Shown here piece after piece: positions 24,178-45,332 of a stretch of 64,000 nt of DNA (positions within the stretch are counted from its first letter, which is position 1; the number at the start of each line of letters is the position of its first letter). The DNA comes from an uncultured Desulfospira sp. (GTDB lineage: Bacteria; Desulfobacterota; Desulfobacteria; Desulfobacterales; Desulfobacteraceae): positions 1,152,001 through 1,216,000 of the forward strand of contig OY760175.1 of NCBI GenBank assembly GCA_963663165.1. Reading direction: 5' to 3'. The notes beneath the pieces were generated by a model that saw only the letters and a list, made by a program, of their open reading frames with translations, was not told the DNA's origin and made no database searches. Both the position numbers and the translations under genes were made by a program.

Positions 24178-24278
24178 TATATGAAAGACTCACTAACATC
24201 TTGAGAAGACCTTTATTATTTGTTATGGGCGGTTCTTGGTTGGATAACCAAGACGGGCCCGTGGCCGTTATTCAGGCC
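24178..24278 (+). repeat. Dispersed ~95-bp intergenic repeat, copy 2
   Basis: Matches copy 1; ends about 25 bp before trkA. Confidence 0.85.
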
Positions 24279-25666: not shown

Positions 25667-27117
25667 TGCGCTGGAGGTTTATCGCCAGAATCATCGGCAT
25701 TCTCCTGGCCTTTCTGGGCTTTGCCATGGTGGTCCCCTTAGCCAGCAGCCTGATCTTTGGGGACAACGCCTTCAAGGGCATGTTAAGCTCCATCAGCATT
25801 ACCTTAGGAACGGCCACAGGACTGATCCTTTTATCCAGGAAAAAGAACGAAGACGCCTATATCAATCAACGGGAAGGCATGGCCGTGGTGGCTTTGGGAT
25901 GGGCAGCCATCGGATTTTTCGGGTGCCTGCCCTTTTATTTTGCCCCGGGATTTACCGGGTTTACCGATGCCGTGTTTGAGTCCGTATCCGGCTTTACCAC
26001 CACGGGATCATCCATCATGACCAACATTGAAGGCATGGTGCCCAGCGTCCTGCTCTGGCGAAGCCTGATCCAGTGGCTGGGGGGCATGGGAATTATCGTT
26101 CTGTCCCTGGCCATTCTCCCTTTTCTTGGGGTTGGTGGTATTCAGCTTTACAAGGCCGAGGTGCCCAGCCCGGTTCCGGACAAGCTCACCCCGCGATTAA
26201 CCGATTCAGCCAAAATCCTCTGGATGGTCTACGCCGGTATTACTGTGCTGGAAATTATCTTTCTGCTGGCCGGGGGCATGCCATTTTTTGAGGCCCTATG
26301 CCACTCACTGACCACCCTTCCCACCGGGGGGTTTTCTCCCAAAAACGCCTCTATCGCCCATTACGACAGTGTTTATTTTGATATGGTCATTACCGGATTC
26401 ATGCTGCTGGCCGGGATCAACTTCTCCCTTCATTACCAAATTCTCAAAGGCCGGACCCTGGCCTTCTGGCAGGATACGGAATGCAAAATATTCCTGGGCT
26501 CTGTCCTTGTCCTGACCCTGGTGGTGACCTGGAATACCTGTGGCGCCGTCTATGAAACCGTTGGCACGGCCTTCCGGTTTTCCTTTTTTCAAATTGCCTC
26601 CATCATTACCACCACCGGTTTTGCCACGGCCGACTATGAGCTGTATCCGGGGTTAAGCCAGATTATTATCTTTGTCTGCATGTTTTTAGGGGCGTCCGCA
26701 GGCTCCACAGGCGGCGGCATGAAATTTGCCCGGATCATCGTATGTGTTAAGTATTGTTACCGGGAATTGTTCAGGCTTATTCACCCGAGAAGCGTCCAGG
26801 TCATTAAATTGAACAACCAGGTGATCCGGACCGAAGTGCTTCACGCCATCATGGGGTTTTTAGCCCTGTACATCCTGGTGTTCATTCTGGCCAGCGCCAT
26901 TTTAGCGGCCATGGGGCTGGACATGATGACAGCCTTTGGGGCTGCCGCCTCCTGCATCGGCAATATCGGCCCCGGATTCGGCACCGTGGGCCCTGCCGAA
27001 AACTTTGCCCACCTGCCCTGCGCGGCCAAATGGCTGTTATCCTGGTGCATGCTGCTGGGACGATTGGAAATTTATACCTTTATCATTCTGTTAGTACCGG
27101 AATTCTGGCGAAACTAA
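25666..27117 (+). CDS. trkH: Trk potassium uptake protein TrkH
   Basis: FESVSGFTTTG, WLGGMG, TGGFS, TTTGF, GSTGGGMK, GNIGPG, GRLEI. Confidence 0.95.
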   Translation: MRWRFIARIIGILLAFLGFAMVVPLASSLIFGDNAFKGMLSSISITLGTATGLILLSRKKNEDAYINQREGMAVVALGWAAIGFFGCLPFYFAPGFTGFTDAVFESVSGFTTTGSSIMTNIEGMVPSVLLWRSLIQWLGGMGIIVLSLAILPFLGVGGIQLYKAEVPSPVPDKLTPRLTDSAKILWMVYAGITVLEIIFLLAGGMPFFEALCHSLTTLPTGGFSPKNASIAHYDSVYFDMVITGFMLLAGINFSLHYQILKGRTLAFWQDTECKIFLGSVLVLTLVVTWNTCGAVYETVGTAFRFSFFQIASIITTTGFATADYELYPGLSQIIIFVCMFLGASAGSTGGGMKFARIIVCVKYCYRELFRLIHPRSVQVIKLNNQVIRTEVLHAIMGFLALYILVFILASAILAAMGLDMMTAFGAAASCIGNIGPGFGTVGPAENFAHLPCAAKWLLSWCMLLGRLEIYTFIILLVPEFWRN

Positions 27118-27233: not shown

Positions 27234-27330
27234 ATGAAAGTCTTCCCAACATCCTGAGAAGACTTTCATTTTTTGTTGTGGACAGTTCTTGGTTGGATAA
27301 TCCAAGCCGTCCGTGACGGTTATTCAGGCC
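27234..27330 (+). repeat. Dispersed ~95-bp intergenic repeat, copy 3 (diverged)
   Basis: tgaaagtcttcccaacatcctgagaagacttt...ttcttggttggataatccaag...gttattcaggcc. Confidence 0.75.
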
Positions 27331-30300
27331 CTACTCAATCGCCGGGCATTGATCATAGGTGAGATCTTCGCAGGCCGACACGTCACTGAACCATACGCCG
27401 CCAAGTTCTTTACACTGTTCATTCGTTCTTGCGTCCACACATCTCATATTCGGGCTTTGGTTAAAACTAAGACAGCAGGCGCCCACCGGGTCCTGGGTGG
27501 TTTCGCATTTAAATTCAGGATCGGAACATTGATATCCATCAGAAAACCGCCCGTTTAATTCTTCACAATCCGTTTTCCGCATAAAGTCTTCACACTGGAC
27601 ACCATATTCATTTTCATAACAGCAGGCGCCAATGAGGGTACACTTTTCTGATCTGATCAGCATTTCGCATGTTATCTTTTCATCTCCATGTTGATACCAT
27701 TCACCGCCAAGCACCTCGCACTGGGCATTTGTCCTGTCATCAAGGCAGCTTATGGTTGCCCCGTCAACGTTACTGAGGCAGCAGGCACCTAAATCCGGAC
27801 TGCCGTAGCATCCAGCGTCGGCACACTGTGTGTTTGGATAGAACTTTCCGGATAATTTGTTACAATTGGTTTCCAGCATCCAGTTGGCGCATTTGGCACC
27901 TGTCGTATCTTTATAGCAACAGGCCCCATAGGGCGCGCATTCAGTTTCTGAAAGATATGCACAGACCCCGTCTTCACTCCATGAACCCTGGAGGATCTTA
28001 CATTTATACTCTGTCAGGTTGTCCAGACATTGTACCGGGAATACACCAGACTCATTTACATAGGAAATCTTGGGATGGCAACAGGAACCGGTGGCCGCAG
28101 GAACCGGACACTCTTCAGATGTCAGGTCTGAACACAGGCGATCGGCAAAGAAGGATCCGCCGGCATCAGAACAGTCACTGCCGGTCACATTGTCATTGCA
28201 CATCGCAGTGGTTGTGCCCCCGGACACCATGGTTATACAACAGGCCCCGGTGGCCTCTGCAATGGCCGGGCATTGCCCATAGGTCAGTTCAGAGCACTGG
28301 ACACCGTCTTCGTCCCCGTCTTCCGGCTCGAACCAGGTGCCGCCGATACTGGCGCACTGGATCTGGGTTCTTGCATCAATACACCTTACCGGCGTGATCG
28401 CGTCCGAATCCTCAGTGGTCAGACAGCAGGCACTCACCACCGGGGGATCTACACATCCGGCCTGGGCACAGGTCTCATTTGGATGGAAGGTTCCGGATAG
28501 CTTGGCACAACTGGTTTCCAGCATCCAGTTAGCACATTTCGTCATACCAGTGGAGGTGTCTTTATAACAACAGGACCCATAAGGCGGGCACTCTTCTTCG
28601 GTGAGGTCCGCACAGATCCCGGCTTCAGACCAGGCCCCCTGGAGCAGCTTGCATTTATATTCGGTCAGGCTGTCCAGGCATTGCACCGGGAACACCCCGC
28701 TTTCGTTCACATAGGATATTTTCGGATGGCAGCAGGACCCGACGGCTGCCGGGCGCGGGCACTCCTCTGAGGTCAGATCCGAACACAGGCGGTTGGCATA
28801 AAGAGATCCGCCAGCGTCAGAACAGGCCGAACCGGTCATGCTGTCAAAACAGTTGGCTGTGGCTGAACTGCCGGAGCCGTAGCTCACGCAGCAGGCCCCT
28901 GACAACTCGGCGACTTCCGGGCATTGTGCATAGGTCAGATCCGCACAGGCTTCTTCTTCATGCCAGAAACCGCCAAGAGCGGTACACTGGGCCAGAGTTC
29001 TGGCGTCTAGGCACCTTACAGGGGTTGAAAGGCCTGAAGACGTAAGGCAGCAGGCGCCGGTTGAAACAGGGCCCGGACAACCGCTTGTCCCTGTCAGGTC
29101 TGAGCATTTCTCATTTGGATGGAAGGTTCCGGATAATTTATCACAATTGGTTTCCAGCATCCAGTTGGCACATTTATCCGCTGTACCGTCGTTATAACAG
29201 CATCCGCCATAGGACGGGCACTCTTCCTCTGAAAGGTCTTCACAGATGCCCCCTTCATTCCAGGTTCCCTGAAGCAGCTTGCATTTATATTCGGTCAGGC
29301 TGTTCAGGCATTGTACCGGAAACACCCCGCTTTCGTTGACATAGGAAATTTTCGGGTGGCAGCAGGACCCGACGGCTGCCGGACGCGGGCACTCCTCTGA
29401 GGTCAAATCCGAACACAGGCGGTTGGCATAAAGAGATCCGCCAGCGTCAGAACAGGCCGAACCGGTCATGCTGTCAAAACAGTTGGCTGTGGCTGAACTG
29501 CCGGAGCCGTAGCTCACGCAGCAGGCCCCTGACAACTCGGCGACTTCCGGGCATTGTGCATAGGTCAGATCCGCACAGGCTTCTTCTTCATGCCAGGAAC
29601 CGCCAAGAGCGGTACACTGGGCCAGGGTTCTGGCATCTAGACACCTTAAGGATGTTGAAAGGCCGGAAGATGTCAGGCAGCAGGCTCCGGTTGAAACAGG
29701 GCCAGGACAACCGCTTGTCCCCGTCAGGTCTGAGCATTTCTCATTTGGATGGAAGGTTCCGGATAGCTTGGCACAACTGGTTTCCAGCATCCAGTTGGCG
29801 CATTTATCCGCTGTACCGTCGTTATAACAGCATCCGCCATAGGACGGGCACTCTTCCTCTGAAAGGTCTTCACAGATGCCCCCTTCATTCCATGTGCCCT
29901 GAAGCAGCTTGCATTTATATTCGGTCAGGCTGTCCAGGCATTGCACCGGGAACACCCCGCTTTCGTTCACATAGGATATTTTCGGATGGCAGCAGGACCC
30001 GACGGCTGCCGGGCGCGGGCACTCCTCTGAGGTCAGATCCGAACACAGGCGGTTGGCATAAAGAGATCCGCCGGCATCAGAACAGGCCGAACCGGTCATG
30101 CTGTCAAAACAGTTGGCTGTGGCTGAACTGCCGGAGCCGTAGCTCACGCAGCAGGCCCCTGACAACTCGGCGACTTCCGGGCATTGTGCATAGGTCAGAT
30201 CCGCACAGGCTTCTTCGTCATGCCAGGAACCGCCAAGAGCGGTACACTGGGCCAGGGTTCTGGCATCTATACACCTTAAGGATGTTGAAAGGCCGGAAGA

Positions 30301-32547
30301 TGTCAGGCAGCAGGCTCCGGTTGAAACAGGGCCAGGACAACCGCTTGTCCCCGTCAGGTCTGAGCATTTCTCATTTGGATGGAAGGTTCCGGATAGCTTG
30401 GCACAACTGGTTTCCAGCATCCAGTTGGCGCATTTATCCGCTGTACCGTCGTTATAACAGCATCCGCCATAGGACGGGCACTCTTCCTCTGAAAGGTCTT
30501 CACAGATGCCCCCTTCATTCCATGTGCCCTGAAGCAGCTTGCATTTATATTCGGTCAGGCTGTCCAGGCATTGCACCGGGAACACCCCGCTTTCGTTCAC
30601 ATAGGATATTTTCGGATGGCAGCAGGACCCCACCCCGGCCAAAACCGGACATTCTTCATTCGTCAGGTCGGCACATGCGCGATCGGCAAAGAATGATCCG
30701 CCACCGTCCGTACAGTCTGTGATATTCAGCCCATCATTGCAGACAGCCGTGGTTGAGCCGTTTTCGGCCACGATGGTATTGCAGCAGGCCCCGGTTGTCC
30801 CTTCAATAGCCGGACACTGCTCAAGGGTCAGGTCGGCGCATTGATCTTCTTCAAACCAGTTGCCGCCAAGGGACTCACACTGGGTCTGTGTTCTGCCGTC
30901 GATACACCGAACCGGTGTGCTTGAAAGGTCACTGAGGCAGCAGGCCCCAACCGTTTCCGGAATAACCGAACATTGTTCCATGGTAAGTTCGGAACACTGC
31001 TGATCAGCAAAAAAAGTACCGCCTAAAGTGGTACACTCTGCTGGAAGCTTCCCGTTGGCGCATTTGGCAATGCCTTCAGAATCCGTATAGCAGCATCCGC
31101 CATAGGGCGCACACGCTTCATCTGTGCATGCCCCCCCCTGGGTCCAGGTGCCCTGAAGCAGTTGGCATTGATATTCGGTCCGGTTTTCCAGGCATTGAAC
31201 CGGGAATACCCCGCTTTCATTGACATAGGAAATTTTCGGATGACAGCAGCTGCCTTTAAGGACAGCAGCCTGGCATTCTTCTGTTAAGAGGGTCTCACAG
31301 GAGCGGGATGCAAAAAACGACTCCCCTTCCCCCTCACATTGAGAAGCGGCCACGCCATCCTCACACATCCCTTCCAAACTCCGGCAGCAGGCACCGGTTT
31401 CACTGCCCGCCGCGCATTCGGCAGCGCTGAGATCAGAACACGACCGCTCCCCATAGAAAGACCCGTTCAGTTCATTTATGCATGCCTGCTCCGATACATT
31501 ATCATCGCATTTGACCACCGAGGGGCAATCTTCTTCTGAGTTATAGCAGCAGGCACCAAAGGGCGGGCATTCCGGCCCGGTTATTTCCGGGTTTATATCC
31601 GGATTCAAATCATCACAGTCACCTGAAATCCCATCAAGCTCCCCCTGGCTGTAGTATGTGTTATCGGGCCGGTTCTGCCCCCATACGCTTGTCCCGTCAG
31701 AATACCCGTCGCCATCCAGATCCCTGTACCAGTGAAACTTACCCATGCTTTCCGAGAAAAACCCCAGATCCGCCCCGTCAACATCACCGTCCGAGGTGAT
31801 ATCCAGCCCCAGGGTGGGATCGTACAGCAACTGAACTTCCGTTTGGGAAAGGGTCCGGCCGTATATGCGCACATCATCCATTTCACCGGAGAAAAAATGG
31901 GCCGGGGCGGCACCGCTCCATGACGCCCCCATGGCAATGGGCAGGCCGGTGATATCTTCAATGGGATCAAAATGGCTTTTGGACCACAACAGCCTGCCGT
32001 TTTTGTAAAACAGGACCCGGCTGTAAAAAGCACTGGCCTTTTCCACCACAACGGCGATGTGCTGCCAGCCAATGGTCACGTCTCCGGCAGCATGGGATTC
32101 CCCATGAAGGCTGACCAAATAACGATCGTCTGCAGAAAAACCGACGCTGACTATTGGTATTGAACCTGAGGATTGTTTCCCAAAAAATGTTTTCCCGGCT
32201 GTGGTCCCCTGGGGGTTGACCCACAGGGACAGGGAAAAAACCGAGGGCAGGTCAAAGCTGCCGGCCTGGATATGAGCACCGGTCCCGTCAAAAGAATAGG
32301 CCCTGCCGGGATTCCCGGACCGGTCCGCTGCCAGGGCGACACTATATGCAGTCCCGTCATACCCATTGGGCCCCATATCCAACACATTGCCGTCAAGGGG
32401 ATAATACGAGATCAGGCCGGCCGGCAGCTCGGCGGACACCGGGACGGTTACCCCTAAAACGCTGATTAAAAACATGCCCACCCAGCAGACCGCCTGGATG
32501 AAAAAAAGTTTCCCGGGGATTGATTTTATATTGCGTGTGGTATTCAT
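27331..32547 (-). CDS. Giant secreted protein: signal peptide, LamG/ConA-like domain, Ca/metal-binding motifs, 27 six-Cys 'GxCC' modules
   Basis: YYPLDGN...WQHIAVV...GEMDDVRIYGRTLS (LamG-like); WYRDLDGDGY...GDCDD (MopE-like motif); G[A/S/G]CC units counted in the translation. Confidence 0.85.
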   Translation of the reverse strand: MNTTRNIKSIPGKLFFIQAVCWVGMFLISVLGVTVPVSAELPAGLISYYPLDGNVLDMGPNGYDGTAYSVALAADRSGNPGRAYSFDGTGAHIQAGSFDLPSVFSLSLWVNPQGTTAGKTFFGKQSSGSIPIVSVGFSADDRYLVSLHGESHAAGDVTIGWQHIAVVVEKASAFYSRVLFYKNGRLLWSKSHFDPIEDITGLPIAMGASWSGAAPAHFFSGEMDDVRIYGRTLSQTEVQLLYDPTLGLDITSDGDVDGADLGFFSESMGKFHWYRDLDGDGYSDGTSVWGQNRPDNTYYSQGELDGISGDCDDLNPDINPEITGPECPPFGACCYNSEEDCPSVVKCDDNVSEQACINELNGSFYGERSCSDLSAAECAAGSETGACCRSLEGMCEDGVAASQCEGEGESFFASRSCETLLTEECQAAVLKGSCCHPKISYVNESGVFPVQCLENRTEYQCQLLQGTWTQGGACTDEACAPYGGCCYTDSEGIAKCANGKLPAECTTLGGTFFADQQCSELTMEQCSVIPETVGACCLSDLSSTPVRCIDGRTQTQCESLGGNWFEEDQCADLTLEQCPAIEGTTGACCNTIVAENGSTTAVCNDGLNITDCTDGGGSFFADRACADLTNEECPVLAGVGSCCHPKISYVNESGVFPVQCLDSLTEYKCKLLQGTWNEGGICEDLSEEECPSYGGCCYNDGTADKCANWMLETSCAKLSGTFHPNEKCSDLTGTSGCPGPVSTGACCLTSSGLSTSLRCIDARTLAQCTALGGSWHDEEACADLTYAQCPEVAELSGACCVSYGSGSSATANCFDSMTGSACSDAGGSLYANRLCSDLTSEECPRPAAVGSCCHPKISYVNESGVFPVQCLDSLTEYKCKLLQGTWNEGGICEDLSEEECPSYGGCCYNDGTADKCANWMLETSCAKLSGTFHPNEKCSDLTGTSGCPGPVSTGACCLTSSGLSTSLRCLDARTLAQCTALGGSWHEEEACADLTYAQCPEVAELSGACCVSYGSGSSATANCFDSMTGSACSDAGGSLYANRLCSDLTSEECPRPAAVGSCCHPKISYVNESGVFPVQCLNSLTEYKCKLLQGTWNEGGICEDLSEEECPSYGGCCYNDGTADKCANWMLETNCDKLSGTFHPNEKCSDLTGTSGCPGPVSTGACCLTSSGLSTPVRCLDARTLAQCTALGGFWHEEEACADLTYAQCPEVAELSGACCVSYGSGSSATANCFDSMTGSACSDAGGSLYANRLCSDLTSEECPRPAAVGSCCHPKISYVNESGVFPVQCLDSLTEYKCKLLQGAWSEAGICADLTEEECPPYGSCCYKDTSTGMTKCANWMLETSCAKLSGTFHPNETCAQAGCVDPPVVSACCLTTEDSDAITPVRCIDARTQIQCASIGGTWFEPEDGDEDGVQCSELTYGQCPAIAEATGACCITMVSGGTTTAMCNDNVTGSDCSDAGGSFFADRLCSDLTSEECPVPAATGSCCHPKISYVNESGVFPVQCLDNLTEYKCKILQGSWSEDGVCAYLSETECAPYGACCYKDTTGAKCANWMLETNCNKLSGKFYPNTQCADAGCYGSPDLGACCLSNVDGATISCLDDRTNAQCEVLGGEWYQHGDEKITCEMLIRSEKCTLIGACCYENEYGVQCEDFMRKTDCEELNGRFSDGYQCSDPEFKCETTQDPVGACCLSFNQSPNMRCVDARTNEQCKELGGVWFSDVSACEDLTYDQCPAIE
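28630..30630 (-). repeat. 630-bp tandem repeat (about 3 near-identical copies) inside the Cys-rich gene
   Basis: Anchor gacggctgccgg at 28741, 29371 and 30001. Confidence 0.9.
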
Positions 32548-32549
32548 TT

Positions 32550-33422
32550 TTATTTGCCTTTGCTGAGTTCCTGATTAATTATTTCCTGAACAGCCGACAA
32601 ACTGCGGCCCTTCAACAGTTTCCCATTGATAAACAGGGTGGGTGTCCCTGTAACATCGGCCTTAGAGGCGTCCTGCATGTCTTTGGCCACCTGATCCCGG
32701 ACCGGTGCGCTGTTCATGTCAGTTTTCCATTTTTCCATATCCAGGGCCAGGGACCGGGCAATGTCTTCAATGCCTTCTTGAGTCAACTTTTCTTGGGCAA
32801 ACAGCTGATCGTGAAATTCCCAGAATTTTCCCTGATTGTGGGCAGAAAGGGCGGCCCGGGCAGCCTGATCCGCCAGGGGGTGGAGTCGGCGAAGGGGCAT
32901 GTTTTTAAACACCAGCTTTACCGTGGCCGGGTTGTTTTTGAGAATCATGTCCAACAAAGGATTCATTTTCCTGCAAAAGGGGCATTCAAAATCCGTGAAT
33001 AAAGCAAGGGTGACCGGCGCATCCTCAGGGCCTTTAAACGGGGAACCGCTGATGTCAATATGATGGACAAAATCAATGGACAGGGCGGTCAGTGTGTTTG
33101 TCCGGCCGTCAATGAGGTAAAGGGTTTCAGCCCGGGGAGAAACATCAATACCGGTGACCCCTTTGCCAACCGACACCCCGCCGGCCAGCTGTCCGTCGGT
33201 GTCATAGACCAGTACCTTGCTTTCTTTGGTCAGGACAAAAACGTATTTCCCGTCATCTGAATGAACGATATCCACAGGGCTTTCCGGCAGCCGCCATTGT
33301 TTGGCCATATGCCATTCAATGGCCACGGTGTTTTCAGGTTCAGGGGATGCGGCAAGGGTAAAATCGGCCAAACAAGCCGTCATCAGGGCCGCAAGAATAA
33401 AAAAATACGGTTTTAAATTCAT
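32550..33422 (-). CDS. Exported DsbA-family thiol-disulfide oxidoreductase with N-terminal beta-propeller-like segment
   Basis: Signal peptide MNLKPYFFILAAL..., FTDFECPFC, GTPT cis-Pro loop; stop lies 2 bp before the giant gene start. Confidence 0.85.
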   Translation of the reverse strand: MNLKPYFFILAALMTACLADFTLAASPEPENTVAIEWHMAKQWRLPESPVDIVHSDDGKYVFVLTKESKVLVYDTDGQLAGGVSVGKGVTGIDVSPRAETLYLIDGRTNTLTALSIDFVHHIDISGSPFKGPEDAPVTLALFTDFECPFCRKMNPLLDMILKNNPATVKLVFKNMPLRRLHPLADQAARAALSAHNQGKFWEFHDQLFAQEKLTQEGIEDIARSLALDMEKWKTDMNSAPVRDQVAKDMQDASKADVTGTPTLFINGKLLKGRSLSAVQEIINQELSKGK

Positions 33423-33555
33423 GGCGTTAAATGGTTTCCATCCATAAGCGGTTGTGTGGGGATATATCTTTAAAAATGTATAGGATAGGAACTCCCTTTT
33501 TGTCAAGGAAATGTGAAGAGAATGTGACGGATTGGCCGTTTTTAAAGCAGAAAAC

Positions 33556-34737
33556 TTAGCGCATGGCCTTGTCAATTGAGGCAAAAACCCTGTCCCAGGT
33601 ATATGCTTCCTTTGCCAGGCACCGGGCGTTTTTCTGAATCGCCTGCCACAGGGGTTTGTCCGTTAACAGGGAGTGGATGTCGCCGGCCATTTTGCCCGGA
33701 TCTTCGGATATAATCGCATGGACCCGGTCTTTGAGCGCCAGCCCCGCTGTTCCCGTCGGCGTTGTGGCCACGGGGATGCCCCGGTACAGGGCGTTAATGA
33801 TTTTAACCTTTATCCCGCCCCCGAATCTTACCGGGGCGACAAACACCCGGCATTGGTCATAATACGGGGTCAGATCCGCCACAAACCCGGTCAGGATAAT
33901 ATCTGCTTTAGACGCCACCAATCTTTGCAGTGCGTTGCCCGGGGCGGCGCCCACAATATAAAAGCGCAGCTGCGGGTTTTGGGCCTTGAGGCGGTCCCAG
34001 ACATGGGTTATAAACCAGGTCAGGCCGTCTGAGTTCGGCTCCCAGCTCAAGGTTCCCACATAAAGCAGCGTCACCTGTGTCCGGTCAAAATCAATGCCGG
34101 GCAGATCCAGCAGCCGGGCATCCCCTAAATGAAAGGTTTCATAGAATTTCTCCGGCCGGGTCCCGAGCCGTAACAAATCCAGCCGGTCATTGGGGGCGGC
34201 CAGGATGCCGTGGGCTTTTTTTCCGGCGGCTGTTTCCCAGGCCTTGATCCGTTTGGACTCCAGATAAATCACCAGTTTTTTAATGGGATTTCTTTCAAGG
34301 TGGGCCAGTTTCTCCCAGATCACATATTCCGCATTATGGGCATGCAGAATAATGCGGCCGCCAAACCCTTCCGGTATATAGGGGGCCATGATAAGGGAAT
34401 CTAAAAACAGGATATCATACCCGTCGGCAATTTGTTCGACATGGGCTTTAAACGTGGCCGAATAATTTCTGTACAGGGACAGCGGCATGTGTTTAAAATA
34501 GCTTTTCAAAAGATTCCGGATGGTCCTGGGTCTGCTCAGCATTTCCCCATAAAACGCCGTTGTTCTGATTTTTGACAACAGCATGGCTTCTCGCCGGTCA
34601 AAATTGTCCGCAAAAAACACACAAACAGCCAGGTCGTAATGCCTTGAAAGGTATTCGGCCATTTCCCACCGTTTTACGGCACCCCCGCTGACCGGCGGAT
34701 AGTCCAGCTGATGGGCAAGAAAAAGGATCTTTTTCAA
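33556..34737 (-). CDS. GT4-family glycosyltransferase
   Basis: PPVSGG, HNAEY, LYVGTLSWEPN, GGGIKVKIINAL. Confidence 0.85.
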   Translation of the reverse strand: MKKILFLAHQLDYPPVSGGAVKRWEMAEYLSRHYDLAVCVFFADNFDRREAMLLSKIRTTAFYGEMLSRPRTIRNLLKSYFKHMPLSLYRNYSATFKAHVEQIADGYDILFLDSLIMAPYIPEGFGGRIILHAHNAEYVIWEKLAHLERNPIKKLVIYLESKRIKAWETAAGKKAHGILAAPNDRLDLLRLGTRPEKFYETFHLGDARLLDLPGIDFDRTQVTLLYVGTLSWEPNSDGLTWFITHVWDRLKAQNPQLRFYIVGAAPGNALQRLVASKADIILTGFVADLTPYYDQCRVFVAPVRFGGGIKVKIINALYRGIPVATTPTGTAGLALKDRVHAIISEDPGKMAGDIHSLLTDKPLWQAIQKNARCLAKEAYTWDRVFASIDKAMR

Positions 34738-36527
34738 GGGGAAACCAGCCTTTGAAATACGGTCCTTTTATTGATCAGATCCTGGGGGGTTCCCAAGGTT
34801 TTTATCCGGCCGTTTTGAAGCAGTACAATCCGGTCACACTGTGTCAGGGCGCTCATGCGGTGGGCCACAATGATCATGGTCTTTTTGCCGTGGAGGGCAT
34901 TGACGGCCCGGGATAGATCCTGCTCGGTGTGTTCGTCCAAAGCCGATGTGGCTTCGTCAAATATGAGAAGCTCAGGGTCATGGTAAAGGGCCCGGGCAAT
35001 GGCAACCCGCTGTTTTTCCCCGCCGGACAGGGTCAGCCCCCGCTCCCCGATGTCTGTGTCCAGGCCCTGGGGCAGCGTAGATATAAAATCTTCCAGCTGG
35101 GCCATATGGACGGCTTTGGCCACTTTAGTGCGGTCAATTTCATGGGCATTGATCCCAAAGGCGATATTTTGTGCCAGGGTGTCATCGGTCAGATAGATGT
35201 CCTGGGGGACAAACCCGATTTTCCGGCGCCAGGATGCCATCCGGCTTTGAATATTCGCATCATCCACGAGAATCCGGCCTTTTAAAGGCGGTATCAGTCC
35301 CAGTATAAGATCGATAATGGTGCTTTTGCCACTGCCGGTAGGCCCCATAATGCCGATAAATTCTCCGGGATGAATGGTTATTGAAACATCGGTTAAAACC
35401 GGCCCGCGCTCCTTTTCATAGGTAAAGGAAACCTGATCCAGAACCAGATGGTGTTGAAAGGTCATGTCCGGCTGCGAATCCTGCGGGTCAGCAGATTCCG
35501 ATTCATATGTCGCTAAAAGTGCCATATCTGCGGCCAGAAGGTCTGCCTCAGCCCCGCCGTACCGGATGAGGTTGATATGCATGGACAGCCGGTTAAATGA
35601 CGGAATGGCCCGGAACCCGGCATAGGTAAAAAGGCCTAAAAGCGGCAGCACATCCTGCATCCCGCCGGCCTTTTCCATGGTTAAAAATACAATGATGAGC
35701 GGCACACAGACAAAAACGGTTTCCACCAGAAACCGGGGGCTGTGGTTCAAGGTGACCACCAGCCGCCTTTGCCGGGAAAGGGCGTTCTGGGTATGGCAAA
35801 ACATGTCATGCCAGAAGGATTCCCGGCCCATGACCTTTACTTCTTTTAATGCGCCAAACGCCTGCTGCATGGTCTTCAGGGCATTTTGCCGCATGTGTTG
35901 TTCCTGGACACCGAGCCTGGCAAACAGGCGGTGCAGCGCTATCAGCAGGGCGCCAAGCAAAAGAGACAGCAAAGAAACGCAACCGATCGTCATCATGGGA
36001 GAGGCCATGATCAGCACGGTAATAATGCCGCAAAGAATGAGGATTTCCGACAGGCCGGCGACAACGGATTCCAAGAGCAGGTGTACCGTGGCCTCCATGC
36101 CCTTGGAAGTCCGGTCAATAAGGGCGGCGGAGTTGCGGTGGAAATGAAAGGAAAACGGTGCGCCAAGATACCGCTTGAACAGGTTGGCGGACAGGAGGGC
36201 AATGGTGGTGTTGGTGAGCCGGCTTCTCAGATAGCAGGCGGTCAGCAGAAAAAAATTTTTCAGCATATAGTACAGACAGACCATTAAGACAAAGCTGAAT
36301 ATGACCGTTTTTTCATCTGCCAGGGCCAATCCCGTATAAAGCCGCGAGACCACGGGGATGTCATAAACAGCGGCCGGGTCCATCATCACCTTTAGCAGGG
36401 CATACACCGCAGCCGCGCCAAGCCCTTCGGCTGCGGCTTCTGCCGCAGAAAGCGGTATGAGGCCCGCCCAGTAACGGCGCATGGACGGCGGCAGGAGCAA
36501 AAAGGCGGTTTTTATTTGCTTAAACAC
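34734..36527 (-). CDS. ABC transporter, fused permease/ATPase, PglK/MsbA-like glycan-export type
   Basis: FHFHRNSA, KEVKVMG, GPTGSGKST, LSGGEKQR, FDEATSALD; sits between glycosyltransferase genes. Confidence 0.8.
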   Translation of the reverse strand: MFKQIKTAFLLLPPSMRRYWAGLIPLSAAEAAAEGLGAAAVYALLKVMMDPAAVYDIPVVSRLYTGLALADEKTVIFSFVLMVCLYYMLKNFFLLTACYLRSRLTNTTIALLSANLFKRYLGAPFSFHFHRNSAALIDRTSKGMEATVHLLLESVVAGLSEILILCGIITVLIMASPMMTIGCVSLLSLLLGALLIALHRLFARLGVQEQHMRQNALKTMQQAFGALKEVKVMGRESFWHDMFCHTQNALSRQRRLVVTLNHSPRFLVETVFVCVPLIIVFLTMEKAGGMQDVLPLLGLFTYAGFRAIPSFNRLSMHINLIRYGGAEADLLAADMALLATYESESADPQDSQPDMTFQHHLVLDQVSFTYEKERGPVLTDVSITIHPGEFIGIMGPTGSGKSTIIDLILGLIPPLKGRILVDDANIQSRMASWRRKIGFVPQDIYLTDDTLAQNIAFGINAHEIDRTKVAKAVHMAQLEDFISTLPQGLDTDIGERGLTLSGGEKQRVAIARALYHDPELLIFDEATSALDEHTEQDLSRAVNALHGKKTMIIVAHRMSALTQCDRIVLLQNGRIKTLGTPQDLINKRTVFQRLVSP

Positions 36528-37750
36528 GGTCTGTCCCCATTGACTAATGATAATAGGATATTTTCTAATCGTCTTCCAAATACCGGCATAGAAAATAAGG
36601 CCTGGGCCCTTTTCTGGGCAGCTTTTCCCATGTCGGCGGCTCTGGCCGGATCAGCGATAAATGTTTTCATGGCCCGGGCAAAATCGCCGGCTGCCGGGTC
36701 ACACAAAAAACCGGTCAGCCCGTTCACGACGGTTTCTTTGGGTCCTCCCCGGTTGACCGCTATGACCGGCTTGCCGGCGGCCATGGCCTCGACAATCCCG
36801 ATGCCGAAATGTTCGTTAACACTGGTATAAACCATGATATCACAGTCCTTGAGCAAGCTTAAGCGCCGGCTGTCCGAAATGGAGGACAAAAAGACCACCT
36901 GGCCGTGCAGGTTTAACTGGTCTGCCTGTGCCTTTAAATCATCTAAGGTCTGCCGCTGCTCCGGGAGACGCTCATCACAGGCACCCGCCATGATAAGCTG
37001 TATTCCATGGAATGTCTCCGGTGAAACCGTCCCGCGAAGGGCTGCCAGGGCATCCAGGGCCAGGGCCAGATTTTTTTCAGGAGCAAACCGGTTGATGGAC
37101 AACAAATTGATCCGGCCTTTATCCGTTAATCCGGAATACATTGGCCCACTGCCCGCCGGGGTCAGAAATTGCGGGATATCAACGCCGGGATAAAGGACCT
37201 TGGGCGGTTTGCGTGAAAAATAAGGGAATGAATCTTTAAATGTCCGGGCTGTAAACTCACTGTTCACCAGGATCTGATGGGCAAACCGCATCCCAAACCG
37301 TTCCAGGCCGTTTACCGGCACCCTGTAAACCCGGTACAGCCCCTTTTTTTGAGGCGCAAGAAGGACATCCGGGTAATGGCCGTAAAACAAAATCTTTGCC
37401 CTGGATATCAGGCGGTAAAAGGGAATAACATGGGGCACCAGGTCACAAACCATAACGTCACAGCAGCGGGATGCCTGTTTCATGGCCAGGGCCATCACCA
37501 TCATCCGGGCAATGGCACAAGGGACGCGAAACCGGCCGGACAGGCCATGGGGGACGAAATTACCCGCGACCTTTATGGTCAGCATGGGGTTGCGTGTCTT
37601 CTCAAGACAATGGCAGGGATCATACCGGCCGGTAAAAATGGTAACCTCATGGCCCTGGTTCACAAGTTCAACCGCCGCATCAACCATCAGCCGTTCAGCG
37701 CCGCCAATGCCCAGATCCGGATGTAAAAATGCAATCTTGAGCCGTTTCAT
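36512..37750 (-). CDS. ALG2-like GT4 mannosyltransferase
   Basis: FLHPDLGIGGAERLMVDAA, KILFYGHYPD, ILVNSEFT, LLSINRF, NEHFGI, AVNRGGP, TGFLC occur in the same order as in eukaryotic ALG2. Confidence 0.85.
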   Translation of the reverse strand: MKRLKIAFLHPDLGIGGAERLMVDAAVELVNQGHEVTIFTGRYDPCHCLEKTRNPMLTIKVAGNFVPHGLSGRFRVPCAIARMMVMALAMKQASRCCDVMVCDLVPHVIPFYRLISRAKILFYGHYPDVLLAPQKKGLYRVYRVPVNGLERFGMRFAHQILVNSEFTARTFKDSFPYFSRKPPKVLYPGVDIPQFLTPAGSGPMYSGLTDKGRINLLSINRFAPEKNLALALDALAALRGTVSPETFHGIQLIMAGACDERLPEQRQTLDDLKAQADQLNLHGQVVFLSSISDSRRLSLLKDCDIMVYTSVNEHFGIGIVEAMAAGKPVIAVNRGGPKETVVNGLTGFLCDPAAGDFARAMKTFIADPARAADMGKAAQKRAQALFSMPVFGRRLENILLSLVNGDRPCLSK

Positions 37751-37986
37751 TTTTTGTTATGTTCCAAAAAACAAAATATCCCGTTAAAAAAAGTCTCCAA
37801 GGTTAGAATACGGCCTTAGACGCGATACGGTTTCATCATGTTGAGGCAGTATCAGGTCCAAAGTCGCCCCGTCAAGAAAAAAATAGCTTGAGAAAAAACC
37901 GCTGCTTTGGTTACCATGATGTTTTGGCAAATTAAAAATAATCCAGGCACACATAACAACAAAGAAGCGTACTATCGAGGTCACCC

Positions 37987-39414
37987 ATGATCGGTCCTGT
38001 GTTTTTTTTCATCCCCCTTGTATTTATCATTTTCCTTTGGCTCTGGTTCCGGTCAAAGACCGCATGGAAAAAGCCGCGCCGGCCAAATGAAACGGTTGTG
38101 GCGTTTTTCCATCCCAATGCCCTGTGCGGCGGCGGGGGAGAACGGGTCCTGTGGATGATGATCCATGCGCTGCAAAAAAGGGATCAGGCAAACGCGGTCC
38201 GGTACGTGATCTATCTGAGTGGGCCGGCCCCAGTGTCATTTTTTGAAGCATCCCGGAAAATCAAATCCCAGTTTAACATCCAACTGAAGGACCCTGTAGA
38301 ATTTATCCCGGTTAAGAAATCACACTTGATTGACGGGGACAGATACCGCCGTTTTACAATGATCCGCCAGGCCATCGGCTCCATCCGGCTGGCCTTTGAA
38401 TGCCTGACCCGGCTTTGCCCCGATTATTACGTGGACACCACCGGGTTTGCCTTTTGCTATCCCCTTGCCCGGCTGGCCGGCTGCAAGGTCATGACATACA
38501 CCCACTACCCGGCCATCAGCGCCGACATGGTATCTGTTGTCCGCGCTAAAACCAACGCCCACAATAACCAGGCCGTCATCGCGCAAAGCCAATGGCTGAC
38601 CGGAATTAAAATATTCTACTATGGTGTGTTTTCTCTTGTATACGGTCTTTGCGGGAAATGCGCCCACCGGGTCATGGTAAACTCCTCGTGGACATGGTCC
38701 CATATTCAGGCCATCTGGTCTCCAAAGGATATTCATATTGTGTTTCCCCCGGCGCCGGTTGAGCATTTAATGAACCTGCCCCTGGGCCCGCGGCAGAACC
38801 AGATTATCTCAGTGGCCCAATTTCGTCCTGAAAAACGGCACGATTTTCAGATCCGTGTGTTTGCCAACGTATTAGAAAGGTGCCGGAAGGAACGTATTAA
38901 GGAAGAACCCCGGTTGGTTCTCGTGGGCGGGTGCCGCAACAAAGCCGATGAGCAATACGTCAGGGACTTGAAAGAACTGGCCCGGCAGTTAGGGGTCCAA
39001 AGCCATGTCGTATTTGCCCCCAACGCGCCATACGAAAAACTGACAGCGTATTTAGGGTCGTCCAAAATTGGCCTGCACGCCATGTGGAACGAACACTTCG
39101 GCATTGGTGTGGTGGAGTACATGGCCGCAGGCTGCATTGCCGTGGCTCACAAAAGCGGCGGGCCTGCACTGGATATCCTTGTCCCGGCCCATGACGGGCC
39201 AAGGGGGTTCCTTGCCGATTCCATGGAGACCTATGTTGCCGCACTGTGCCATATTCTGCTTGGGGAACGGCCCGAAAAGGACCTTGAAAACATACGAATC
39301 CGAGGCCGTAAGCAGTGTCAGAAATTTTCCAACGACATATTTATCAAAAAAATACAGCGACTGATGGTCTTTACCGGCACATCTTTGTGTTTATTCTGGC
39401 CAGCGCCATTTTAG
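37987..39414 (+). CDS. ALG11-like GT4 mannosyltransferase with N-terminal membrane anchor
   Basis: AFFHP..GGGGERVLW, HYPAISADM, VMVNSSWT, QFRPEK, GGCRNKAD, GLHAMWNEHFGIGVVEYMAAG, HKSGGP occur in the same order as in eukaryotic ALG11. Confidence 0.88.
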   Translation: MIGPVFFFIPLVFIIFLWLWFRSKTAWKKPRRPNETVVAFFHPNALCGGGGERVLWMMIHALQKRDQANAVRYVIYLSGPAPVSFFEASRKIKSQFNIQLKDPVEFIPVKKSHLIDGDRYRRFTMIRQAIGSIRLAFECLTRLCPDYYVDTTGFAFCYPLARLAGCKVMTYTHYPAISADMVSVVRAKTNAHNNQAVIAQSQWLTGIKIFYYGVFSLVYGLCGKCAHRVMVNSSWTWSHIQAIWSPKDIHIVFPPAPVEHLMNLPLGPRQNQIISVAQFRPEKRHDFQIRVFANVLERCRKERIKEEPRLVLVGGCRNKADEQYVRDLKELARQLGVQSHVVFAPNAPYEKLTAYLGSSKIGLHAMWNEHFGIGVVEYMAAGCIAVAHKSGGPALDILVPAHDGPRGFLADSMETYVAALCHILLGERPEKDLENIRIRGRKQCQKFSNDIFIKKIQRLMVFTGTSLCLFWPAPF

Positions 39415-39478
39415 CGGCCATGGGGCTGGACATGATGACCGCCTTTGGGGCTGCAGCATCCTGCATCGGCAATATCGG
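39379..39478 (+). repeat. 100-bp duplicate of the trkH segment 26870-26969
   Basis: Direct alignment with 6 mismatches; encodes FILASAILAAMGLDMMTAFGAAASCIGNIG. Confidence 0.92.
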
Positions 39479-40788: not shown

Positions 40789-41034
40789 TAACGGTCACGG
40801 GCCGTCTTGGTTATCCAACCAAGCACCGCCCACAACGAATAATGAAACTGAAGATACCAGCAACGGTAGACTATAAATTGGGCACCGCAGGTGCTTCGCC
40901 CTCTTGTCTCTTGTTTCTTGTTTCTTGTCTCCAGTTTCTTATAAACGGCCACGGGCCGCCCTGGTTGTCCAACCAAGAACCGCCCACAACAAATAATGAA
41001 AGTCTTCTCAAGATGTTAGTGAGACTTTCATATA
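40789..41034 (-). repeat. Dispersed repeat copies 4 (partial, 40789-40847) and 5 (40944-41034) flanking a TCTTG(T/C)-heptamer element (40872-40940)
   Basis: Both are reverse complements of copy 1/2; the central element is homologous to 44031-44086. Confidence 0.85.
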
Positions 41035-41182
41035 AAAAATATCAAACCATTTTTCTTGCCCTGCAACTTAGGGGATATGGACCATTTTTTCCAGAAAAAA
41101 ATTATTTTTACCCTTCATGCATTGATTTCCCCATCCTCCCCCGAAAGAATAAAGGCTCAGCCATGCCGGTCACCGGCGTTTA

Positions 41183-44004: not shown

Positions 44005-44128
44005 CAATGTCATTAACTTAAGCGTTAATACAAGAAACTGGAAACAAGAGACAAGAGGGTGAAGCACCGTTGGCGCCCATTTTATACCCCCTGCGCGCTA
44101 TGCCAAATTTCTTAAGTTAATGGCATTG
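44005..44128. mobile_element. 124-bp MITE with IS4-like 18-bp terminal inverted repeats
   Basis: caatgtcattaacttaag / cttaagttaatggcattg (1 mismatch); flanks aatgtcactc / actgtcactc resemble a 10-bp target duplication. Confidence 0.75.
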
Positions 44129-44331: not shown

Positions 44332-44459
44332 GGGTGCAATCCCATTTAGTGGCATGAACTGACATGTATCCAATTTTTCCGTTTTTCATGCTGCATTGAA
44401 TACTCTGCCCTCCCAAAAAAAGCTGGACTCCTGGCTCATGAAAGGTTATATAGATTTGC

Positions 44460-45332
44460 ATGAGCAGGACTTTAACCATTCAAGGACGTGAATTTTCAGA
44501 AGTTGATATACAAACGATACGCCATTTGATTAACGACAATCCCGCCTGGCACCGCACTCGTTTATCCAAAGAATTGTGTGCTCGCTGGGATTGGCGCACG
44601 GAAAAAGGTCTGCTCAAGGACATGGCCTGTCGAAGCATGCTGAGAAAACTTGAGCAAAAAGGGATGGTCACACTTCCCGTTGCCCGTCATAGCGGTAACC
44701 GTCAGCGGCGTATTCCCGATGTCCCCCATGATTGTAAGCCGATAGAAACCACTTTGCGTAAGATCCGCCCGATACAATTGATACCGGTATCGGGCCGTGG
44801 AGATATTGATGATTTATTCCATTGCCTTATGGATCGATATCATTACCTTGGGTGTAAAGGGTATGTCGGAGAACATATGAAGTATATGGCTTTTGATCGC
44901 AATTCTCGTCCGGTTGCCTGCCTGCTTTTTGGCTCAGCAGCATGGAAAACGGCCCCTCGTGACCGATTCATCGGTTGGGATAGGTCGGCTCGTCGCAGGA
45001 ACCTGCATATGACGACCAACAATACCCGATTTTTGATTTTGCCATGGATTCGAATTCCCCATCTTGCCAGTCATATTCTGGGTTCATGTCTTAGGCGGCT
45101 GAGCCGGGACTGGACAGCTAAATATGGTCACGATATCTGTCTGGTAGAAACTTTCGTGGATCGATCACGCTTTGCCGGAACTTGCTACCAGGCGGCAAAT
45201 TGGCAAAAAATTGGTCAAAGCAAAGGGCGAAGCCGTCAAGACAGGCACCACAGACTTCAGGTGCCGATAAAAGACATCTATGTATACCCGTTGACTTCCA
45301 ATTATAAAAAGCAGCTATGCACACAAACTTGA
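44460..45332 (+). CDS. DUF4338 (DruA-like) protein, IS-associated
   Basis: LKDMACRSMLRKLE, YHYLG, RDRFIGW, NNTRFLILPW, ETFVD, GTCYQAANW. Confidence 0.85.
   Translation: MSRTLTIQGREFSEVDIQTIRHLINDNPAWHRTRLSKELCARWDWRTEKGLLKDMACRSMLRKLEQKGMVTLPVARHSGNRQRRIPDVPHDCKPIETTLRKIRPIQLIPVSGRGDIDDLFHCLMDRYHYLGCKGYVGEHMKYMAFDRNSRPVACLLFGSAAWKTAPRDRFIGWDRSARRRNLHMTTNNTRFLILPWIRIPHLASHILGSCLRRLSRDWTAKYGHDICLVETFVDRSRFAGTCYQAANWQKIGQSKGRSRQDRHHRLQVPIKDIYVYPLTSNYKKQLCTQT

Follow-up and report, generated by a model that had tools for sequence, protein, structure and literature searches.

The closest described counterparts of the locus reported here are the pgl system of Campylobacter, the lipid-linked oligosaccharide (LLO) pathway of eukaryotes and the bacterial ALG1 and ALG2 proteins. 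Bacterial ALG2s were reported as active alpha-1,3/1,6-mannosyltransferases, with three of four active in vitro, by Xu et al. (bioRxiv 10.1101/2025.10.15.682550), who also defined the GIGGAER and EX7E motifs and the importance of a Val residue. ALG2 and ALG11 were presented as eukaryotic clades by Lombard 2016 (PMC4973528), and Kifer et al. (bioRxiv 2024.10.30.621208), using similarity alone, assigned ALG11 to cellular organisms. MurG-fold enzymes that form a chitobiose core, i.e., Agl24 and ALG13/14, are on record (PMC8993221), and deltaproteobacterial oligosaccharyltransferases (OSTs) with relaxed sequon use have been documented (PMC4894442); here and below, statements on these sources apply to the portions of them that were used. 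Neither a bacterial ALG11 nor an ALG-OST cluster that includes a Cys-rich substrate was described in the open-access literature searched. Here we describe a block with both an ALG11 gene and the gene of a giant Cys-rich protein in a 64,000-nucleotide stretch (the window, G000:C1:1152001-1216000) of the genome of an uncultured Desulfospira sp. (G000; a single contig of 6.74 Mb).

We favor, with somewhat better than even confidence, a reading in which the giant protein would be exported, oxidised by the DsbA encoded next to it and N-glycosylated by an OST encoded elsewhere in the genome, while a cassette of glycosyltransferase (GT) genes would mannosylate and flip an undecaprenyl-linked chitobiose glycan. 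Taken separately, it is probable that the giant protein is an OST substrate and nearly as probable that the cassette feeds the OST; that the glycan is exactly Man5GlcNAc2 is unlikely. The block, flanked by trkH and murA, consists of five minus-strand genes and a divergent plus-strand ALG11, and its features (window coordinates) are:

27331..32547, minus strand: giant secreted protein gene (open reading frame; PF13385, E = 6e-17; hydrophobic stretch from residue 15), a putative substrate of both OST and DsbA
28048..31221, minus strand: six PKISYV-N-E-S-GVFPVQC motifs, with Asn codons starting at 31221, 30597, 29967, 29337, 28707 and 28056
32550..33422, minus strand: dsbA, DsbA-type thioredoxin (N-terminal hydrophobic stretch, CPFC active site, GTP motif)
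33423..33555, minus strand: 133-nt gap between the two modules, intergenic between GT4 and dsbA
33556..34737, minus strand: GT4 glycosyltransferase (best NCBIfam match TIGR03087, below cut-off)
34734..36527, minus strand: PglK-like ABC exporter (best NCBIfam match PglK, 295 bits against a cut-off of 1000)
36512..37750, minus strand: ALG2-like GT4 (GIGGAER loop, EHFGIGIVE)
37987..39414, plus strand: ALG11-family mannosyltransferase (PF15924, E = 3e-71; N-terminal membrane anchor; EHFGIGVVE)
39366..39478, plus strand: trkH scar, a 113-nt copy (90%) of trkH 26855-26969

An earlier note on this DNA, made from the letters alone, had placed the ALG2-like, ABC, GT4, DsbA and giant genes on the minus strand, which the coordinates confirm, and the gap that it gave as 33422-33556 is real; the range that it covered (27331..39414) also holds ALG11 on the plus strand, a gene that it left unnamed. 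The reading frames of ALG2 and ABC and those of ABC and GT4 overlap, and the dsbA stop codon lies 2 nt before the giant start. A congeneric uncultured Desulfospira locus (L005) carries the same genes with 84-95% identity.

The favored reading draws on the distribution of these genes among 161 genomes of the family (G labels denote these genomes, L labels loci and P labels proteins used in the comparison). The giant repeat was found in seven genomes and the OST, by protein query as well as by Pfam PF21436, in six genomes from 4 of 19 genera, all six being giant carriers. ALG2 (4/161, at E 1e-40) and ALG11 (3/161) were likewise confined to giant carriers, and every carrier of either falls within the six OST carriers. 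In four of the six other giant carriers (G057, G078, G110 and G024) the giant gene is directly flanked by dsbA, the PglB-like OST and a second MurG-type gene (MurG2), and none of the four has another non-enzyme gene beside OST-MurG2; in G110, insertion sequence (IS) fragments lie between dsbA and the OST, and a WecA-like gene adjoins the cluster. In G000 and G113, OST-MurG2 is remote and the GT cassette adjoins giant-dsbA instead. As the four genes adjoin in four relatives and the OST occurs only in giant carriers, we regard giant-DsbA-OST-MurG2 as the core; GT4-ABC-ALG2-ALG11, on this comparative evidence, has had a history of its own and forms an accessory cassette. The ratios of nonsynonymous to synonymous substitution rates (dN/dS) were 0.14-0.36 in all 14 module comparisons, indicating purifying selection.

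These data bear on the earlier proposal that the block is a self-contained island for folding and glycosylating its own giant protein. Co-occurrence of the GT and giant genes in other genomes was found, and the genome does have an OST. The proposal that substrate, disulfide catalyst and glycan genes travel together is strongly supported by the linkage of giant, dsbA, OST and MurG2 in four genomes and by the confinement of the OST to giant carriers; the GT/ABC cassette is a separate module. The block is not self-contained, because genes for an OST, an initiating transferase and a chitobiose-forming enzyme are missing from it; the OST, MurG2 and the WecA-like gene are remote. Nor does it behave as an island by other signs: there is no integrase among the block genes, no tRNA within the window and no clear GC step at the block (GC 0.533, genome 0.500), and it holds two classes of synonymous divergence (dS); the one sign of an island is the patchy distribution.

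The giant protein has 1738 amino acids, 166 of them Cys, with a predicted signal peptide at about residues 1-39, a LamG/ConA-like domain at 87-239 (PF13385, 6e-17), an acidic linker and then 27 Cys modules of about 50 amino acids, of which 26 have six Cys and one has seven. Modules 3-26 consist of six copies of a four-module unit with a period of 624-651 nt, and PKISYVNESGVFPVQC sits in the first module of each unit, placing the Asn of SYVNESG at residues 443, 651, 861, 1071, 1281 and 1498. There are 16 sequons in total, one of them inside the predicted signal peptide, and all eight other types named in the earlier note (NVS, NRT, NGS, NIT, NET, NVT, NLT and NQS) are present. An acidic residue stands at position -2 in only 2 of the 16; the six repeated sequons have Tyr there. 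Across the six OST-positive genomes, N-E-S was found in 25/25 motif copies, despite synonymous variation and a switch of the Ser codon between AGY and TCT, while G066, in which no OST was found, shows one copy, with N-E-D. In a homologue from Mastigamoeba balamuthi (31% identity), NES, NQS and NGS are kept in three of four motif copies, and 21 sequons compare with 10.3 expected; in P0401, 24 compare with 12.7 expected.

The Cys module matched no Pfam or NCBIfam family, and Tandem Repeats Finder reported no repeat, the giant's period being above its 500-nt limit. Two modules were modelled with AlphaFold (25-row alignment; predicted local distance difference test score, pLDDT, 70.7); the model places the sequon in a loop between two strands, with a loop pLDDT <50, and had no Foldseek match at E 0.001. 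A fold match to ADAM17 (VIA, Z 3.2, root-mean-square deviation 2.0, 41 residues) was taken as no fold assignment, and Planctomycetota-type clusters in ESM Atlas (0.91-0.92, low recognition score) were kept as a lead only. The same Cys module with its loop motif occurs in M. balamuthi and two other proteins (P0405, P0404 and P0406); the two non-Mastigamoeba proteins differ in architecture, one having DUF4215 repeats.

The OST is the single PglB-like gene of G000, at 6.027 Mb (L007:9308-11497) and thus 4.8 Mb from the block. It matches PF02516 (STT3 N-domain) and PF21436 above cut-off, contains WWDxG and aligns to C. lari PglB (5OGL) with E 2e-18. Relative to 5OGL, the WWD, the DGY Asp, the DTD pair, the TxxE Glu and both Arg positions are kept, and there is no Arg at the R331 column. 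Apart from R147 and R331, we take the conserved residues to have their usual active-site roles, including metal and lipid binding. The roles of R147 and R331 in PglB have been described (PMC4894442). The OST is followed by MurG2, a second MurG-fold GT28 protein (33% identity to the other MurG of G000; its GGH loop is retained), which by analogy with ALG13/14 is a candidate for the chitobiose-forming role. The WecA-like gene, at G000:584763 (0.585 Mb), is inside an exosortase cluster, and ManC-type genes are present in the genome. An exosortase/exopolysaccharide (EPS) cluster at L149:1309-16400 holds GT4, GT2 and WecG/TagA genes along with this WecA-like gene and, judging from its gene content, may supply the initiating sugar and the third one.

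The dsbA beside the giant is an extra copy, with a second one at G000:5.85 Mb (41% identity); its product matches PF01323 and PF13462 and, with its CPFC and hydrophobic N-terminus, is a predicted thiol oxidase of the DsbA type. The DsbA type of window positions 32553-33422 occurs in 27/161 family genomes (29 matches); 17 of the 29 have one in-frame TGA, likely encoding selenocysteine, and none of the six giant-adjacent copies has it. Genes at L054:1-4916 flank the core in G078 and have homologues at G000:530656-536608; from their appearance we take both to be type II secretion-like clusters, a plausible export route for a folded giant.

Among cassette genes, the ALG2-like protein belongs to a broad bacterial clade (43-84% identity for the best 120 of 2529 matches, the few named ones being bacterial). 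We inspected the neighbourhoods of ALG2 in metagenomes (best 80 of 505 loci; most are short and 24 reach 9 kb) and found an ALG1-like gene in 19, an ABC gene in 18, a MurG-like gene in 12 and a WecA-like gene in 4; of the 24 loci of at least 9 kb, 10 show such neighbours, and some neighbour-less loci are probably eukaryotic. All six OST candidates scanned in these loci were of the STT3 family. ALG2, a MurG paralogue, a PglK-like ABC and an OST cluster with ALG1 in L063, L068, L073, L074 and L078. The closest full cluster, L062:5399-13007, contains OST (40%), MurG2 (41%), ALG2 (49%) and ABC (51%), with no ALG1 within its 13 kb; it also holds a Stealth-family phosphotransferase. The cluster at L068:4323-18203 comprises an AglB/STT3-type OST, ALG1-like, ALG2, GT2, MurG-like and PglK-like ABC genes and a sulfotransferase, as well as a GnT-I/MGAT1-family gene (PF03071, E 7e-109) and the gene of a 657-amino-acid Ig/PKD protein that contains 11 sequons; judging from these genes, it may mimic in a bacterium the synthesis of hybrid/complex N-glycans.

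ALG11 matches PF15924 with 240 bits (cut-off 29.8) and a GT4 C-domain. Its relatives (best 120 of 3017) stand at 86, 73 and 51% identity, followed by eukaryotic ALG11 at 38-47%, and it was found in 0/400 other genomes of the phylum sampled; a search of PDB sequences with ALG11 and ALG2 matched generic GT4 entries only. In a quick tree of 31 rows, ALG11 falls in a 24-row ALG11 branch (SH-like approximate likelihood ratio test, 96), separate from ALG2 and from weakly similar bacterial proteins, and the bacterial ALG11 clade, including P0004 and P0373, is nested among eukaryotes (support 82, unstarred). Among 20 tree proteins looked up, 11 belong to clusters with eukaryotic names or from a eukaryote database, one is a bacterial relative and eight have no organism given. 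Monophyly of the eukaryotes was not rejected (approximately unbiased test, p-AU 0.425), and the nested placement is tentative. A eukaryote-to-bacterium transfer is nevertheless likely, because of the rarity of the gene (3/161 in the family, 0/400 in the rest of the phylum) rather than because of the tree. A first FastTree analysis (159 rows) had placed the bacterial clade near rows of Naegleria, Acrasis, Blastocystis and Rozella; as the second tree did not repeat this placement, we name no donor. A close ALG11 was present in 0/80 metagenome ALG2 loci, and the gene was apparently added to the cluster, not lost from it.

On the favored reading, the WecA-like enzyme would make GlcNAc-PP-undecaprenol, MurG2 would add beta-1,4-GlcNAc as ALG13/14 or Agl24 do, an enzyme other than ALG1 would supply a beta-linked third sugar, ALG2 would add alpha-1,3/1,6-Man, ALG11 alpha-1,2-Man and GT4 a further sugar. 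The ABC exporter, a candidate lipid-linked glycan flippase, would flip the product, and the OST, which lacks the Arg imposing the acidic -2 rule, would transfer the glycan to the N-E-S loops; the cassette-less carriers G024 and G110 would attach a shorter glycan. A bolder version, which we hold to be rather improbable, is that the bacterium carries out the entire cytosolic half of the eukaryotic N-glycan route. An ALG11 acquired from an anaerobic protist and a non-ALG1 beta-mannosyltransferase would have completed a bacterial MurG/ALG2/flippase/OST cluster, and the resulting Man5GlcNAc2-like glycan on undecaprenol would serve, together with a dedicated DsbA, to mature a disulfide-rich, eukaryote-like protein of the cell surface whose repeat also occurs in Mastigamoeba.

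A number of observations weigh against the favored reading. ALG1 was not found in G000, whether by motifs, by tblastn (best E 0.03) or by a hidden Markov model (HMM) built from seven bacterial ALG1-like proteins (best E 0.011), nor was it found in 5/5 kin; the same query finds ALG1 in 2/401 genomes of the phylum, so the query works. The known ALG2 acceptor needs beta-Man. There must therefore be another source of a beta-linked third sugar, for which a WecG/TagA-family gene is a candidate by its family assignment, or another ALG2 acceptor here. ALG2 itself has Gly where Val is expected in the EX7E motif; this Gly is the consensus of the bacterial clade, and the protein is filed as ALG2-like. 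The 80 metagenome ALG2 loci, mostly short, showed no giant repeat and no dsbA match. Specificity at -2 does not depend on R331 alone (PMC4894442). The cassette lies without giant and dsbA, on another contig than the giant, in G057 (L006; 74% DNA identity over window 33584-39372, with homology ending at 33584), is reduced to GT4-ALG2, without ABC and ALG11, in G078, and was sought and not found in the core carriers G024 and G110. G066 (980 contigs) gave no match to OST, MurG2 or dsbA, which may be an assembly gap. Moreover, the carriers (four genera) are kin and not independent, and the very small hypergeometric values for their co-occurrence overstate the association. Compared to the congeneric locus, dS was 0.07 for the giant N-terminus, 0.12 for dsbA and 0.22-0.31 for the cassette (0.29-0.33 for OST-MurG2; 0.34-0.38 for trkH and murA). 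To the same side belong several features of the sequons. The earlier note had pointed to SYV-N-E-S-G in six modules; six copies were indeed found, but they are repeat copies of one position in the four-module unit and not independent, and all 16 motif residues are invariant, beyond the sequon alone. The total of 16 is borderline against 5000 shuffles (10.7 +/- 2.9, p 0.057); with the near-identical modules 7-19 dropped, 11 compare with 5.8 +/- 2.2 (p 0.023; a post hoc test). Motif copies read NEE, NEE and NEN in P0404 (plus one NVT), NES and NEN at 2:2 in P0406, which has 11 sequons, fewer than the 19.3 expected by chance, and NED in one of six copies of P0401. Asn-x-x-Gly is a common turn, and motifs without Ser or Thr in distant homologues fit the expectation for such a turn.

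Three other explanations can be set against these data. If the core is read correctly and the cassette is unrelated to it, the OST would attach a short MurG2-made glycan and the cassette, inserted by chance beside dsbA-giant, would serve lipopolysaccharide (LPS) or EPS, as the earlier note had allowed. The best family match of GT4 is to a GT of the PEP-CTERM/exosortase system (it co-travels with ALG2), the WecA-like gene is in an exosortase cluster, GT4 (48%) and ALG2 adjoin a WavE LPS gene in L066, and the ABC exporter scores nearly as well on the NCBIfam models of MsbA and HepA as on PglK; the missing ALG1, the two cassette-less core carriers and the dS difference from giant-dsbA point the same way. 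Against this stand the confinement of every ALG2 (4) and ALG11 (3) carrier to the 6 OST carriers among 161 genomes and the finding that unrelated bacteria, with L062 as the closest case, have ALG2 and this ABC in clusters with an OST and MurG-like genes, and we give this explanation a low probability. A slightly lower one goes to the view that the OST serves other envelope proteins (those of PEP-CTERM and dockerin type encoded close to it, or a wide range of secreted proteins), N-E-S-G being a hairpin turn and the giant merely sharing a surface-structure island. This would accommodate the N-x-[E/N/D]-G versions in P0401, P0404, P0406 and G066, the borderline sequon total, the PEP-CTERM and dockerin genes that flank the G057 cluster and the lack of linkage between OST and giant in G000 and G113; it fits less well with the giant as sole non-enzyme neighbour of OST-MurG2 in the four linked genomes, with a Ser retained through a change of codon family and with the higher-than-expected sequon numbers of P0401 and the Mastigamoeba homologue.

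Finally, the cassette could be an idle remnant, without product, left when a once complete ALG1-ALG2 cluster was deprived of its ALG1. The absence of ALG1, the ALG11 C-terminus altered by the trkH scar and the stepwise absence of cassette genes among kin would be in line with this, but the frames are open with dN/dS of 0.15-0.36 across two genera, ALG11 was apparently gained, given its absence near metagenome ALG2s, and L062 shares the ALG1-less layout; we thus consider an idle remnant very improbable.

We also examined the layout of the window. The trkH copy after ALG11 had been a candidate att site and was rejected; because the congeneric locus carries the same order without the repeat (trkH-IS-murA-giant...ALG11-GFA), the copy is, on this comparison, a rearrangement scar that marks the event placing murA on the ALG11 side of the block. 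The scar replaces the last codon of ALG11 and adds 12 residues; its positions 39379-39478 are closer to trkH of G113 (96% over 100 nt) than to the genome's own trkH (90% over 115 nt), hinting at an origin in another strain. In a check for misassembly, one contig of run X1, which may be the source sample, spans 32000-39422 with zero differences and a depth equal to that of its neighbours. In the gap at 33423-33555, positions 33506-33501 read TTGACA, a perfect match, but no consensus -10 accompanies it; this is a possible promoter of dsbA's own; scans for promoters and terminators (12 and 18 sites vs. 9.9 and 16.4 in shuffles) were uninformative. Elsewhere, a dispersed repeat of about 95 nt lies at 24178-24271, 27234-27300 and 40945-41039 (>100 genomic copies, often arranged in tandem; an inverted repeat lies inside it), a second repeat family (125 nt) at 44005-44128, and a multicopy IS begins at 44332, with a DruA-like match on 44460-45332. 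A 1691-amino-acid protein with Ig-like and Glce beta-sandwich domains (52104-57179) adjoins a transglutaminase-like gene in a lower-GC stretch.

If the favored reading is true, the system would be a small bacterial version of endoplasmic reticulum protein maturation, with a eukaryote-like sugar chain on a folded giant. The giant is a candidate for the natural substrate of ALG-type glycosylation clusters in bacteria, and one repeated peptide, ISYVNESGVFPVQC, is its candidate glycopeptide. If a bacterial OST, flippase and mannosyltransferases cooperate on a chitobiose-mannose lipid glycan and act on minimal sequons of disulfide-rich proteins, they would be of direct use for making eukaryote-type glycoproteins in E. 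coli. The rare bacterial ALG11 points to gene flow from eukaryote to bacterium and bears on the reading of ALG1 and ALG2 as of bacterial ancestry.

Compared to the Campylobacter pgl system, the Desulfospira system is alike in its single-subunit PglB-type OST, PglK-like ABC and GT4 enzymes and, by prediction, in its undecaprenyl carrier and periplasmic transfer. It differs in scores below the equivalog cut-offs (PglB, 77 of 1300; PglK, 295 of 1000), in the lack of Arg at R331, in GTs of ALG2, ALG11 and MurG type in place of PglA/J/H, in the spread of its genes over three loci and in one dedicated Cys-rich candidate substrate and a DsbA that are linked to the OST in kin. The eukaryotic pathway (ALG7, ALG13/14, ALG1, ALG2 and ALG11, with STT3 and PDI) is paralleled by ALG11 (43-46% identity to eukaryotic ALG11), an ALG2-like protein that has the two signature motifs, a MurG-fold protein that may take the ALG13/14 step, a predicted thiol oxidase and a putative Cys-rich client to which Mastigamoeba has a homologue; here, no ALG1 was found, an ABC exporter stands in place of RFT1, the OST is bacterial and the glycan is predicted from genes alone. 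Overall, the gene content suggests a hybrid of the Campylobacter pgl and cytosolic ALG pathways that falls outside both, by the equivalog cut-offs and by ALG1, respectively. The deltaproteobacterial OST is predicted to take N-X-S/T without an acidic -2 residue, as described for the Desulfovibrio PglBs (PMC4894442); here the OST is rare in its family (6/161 genomes) and not a core gene. The ALG2 is of the same clade type as the bacterial ALG1/ALG2 of Xu et al. (bioRxiv 10.1101/2025.10.15.682550), in the used portions of which no gene neighbourhoods, OST link, bacterial ALG11 or substrate are reported. Relative to the ALG1-ALG2-MurG-flippase-STT3 clusters (L063, L068, L073, L074 and L078), the present system is ALG1-less, has gained ALG11 and uses a PglB-type OST, and the tie to a specific Cys-rich protein and DsbA is a feature of this lineage. 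What is new is the bacterial ALG11, a gene layout that lacks ALG1 and the linkage of a putative Cys-rich client and its DsbA.

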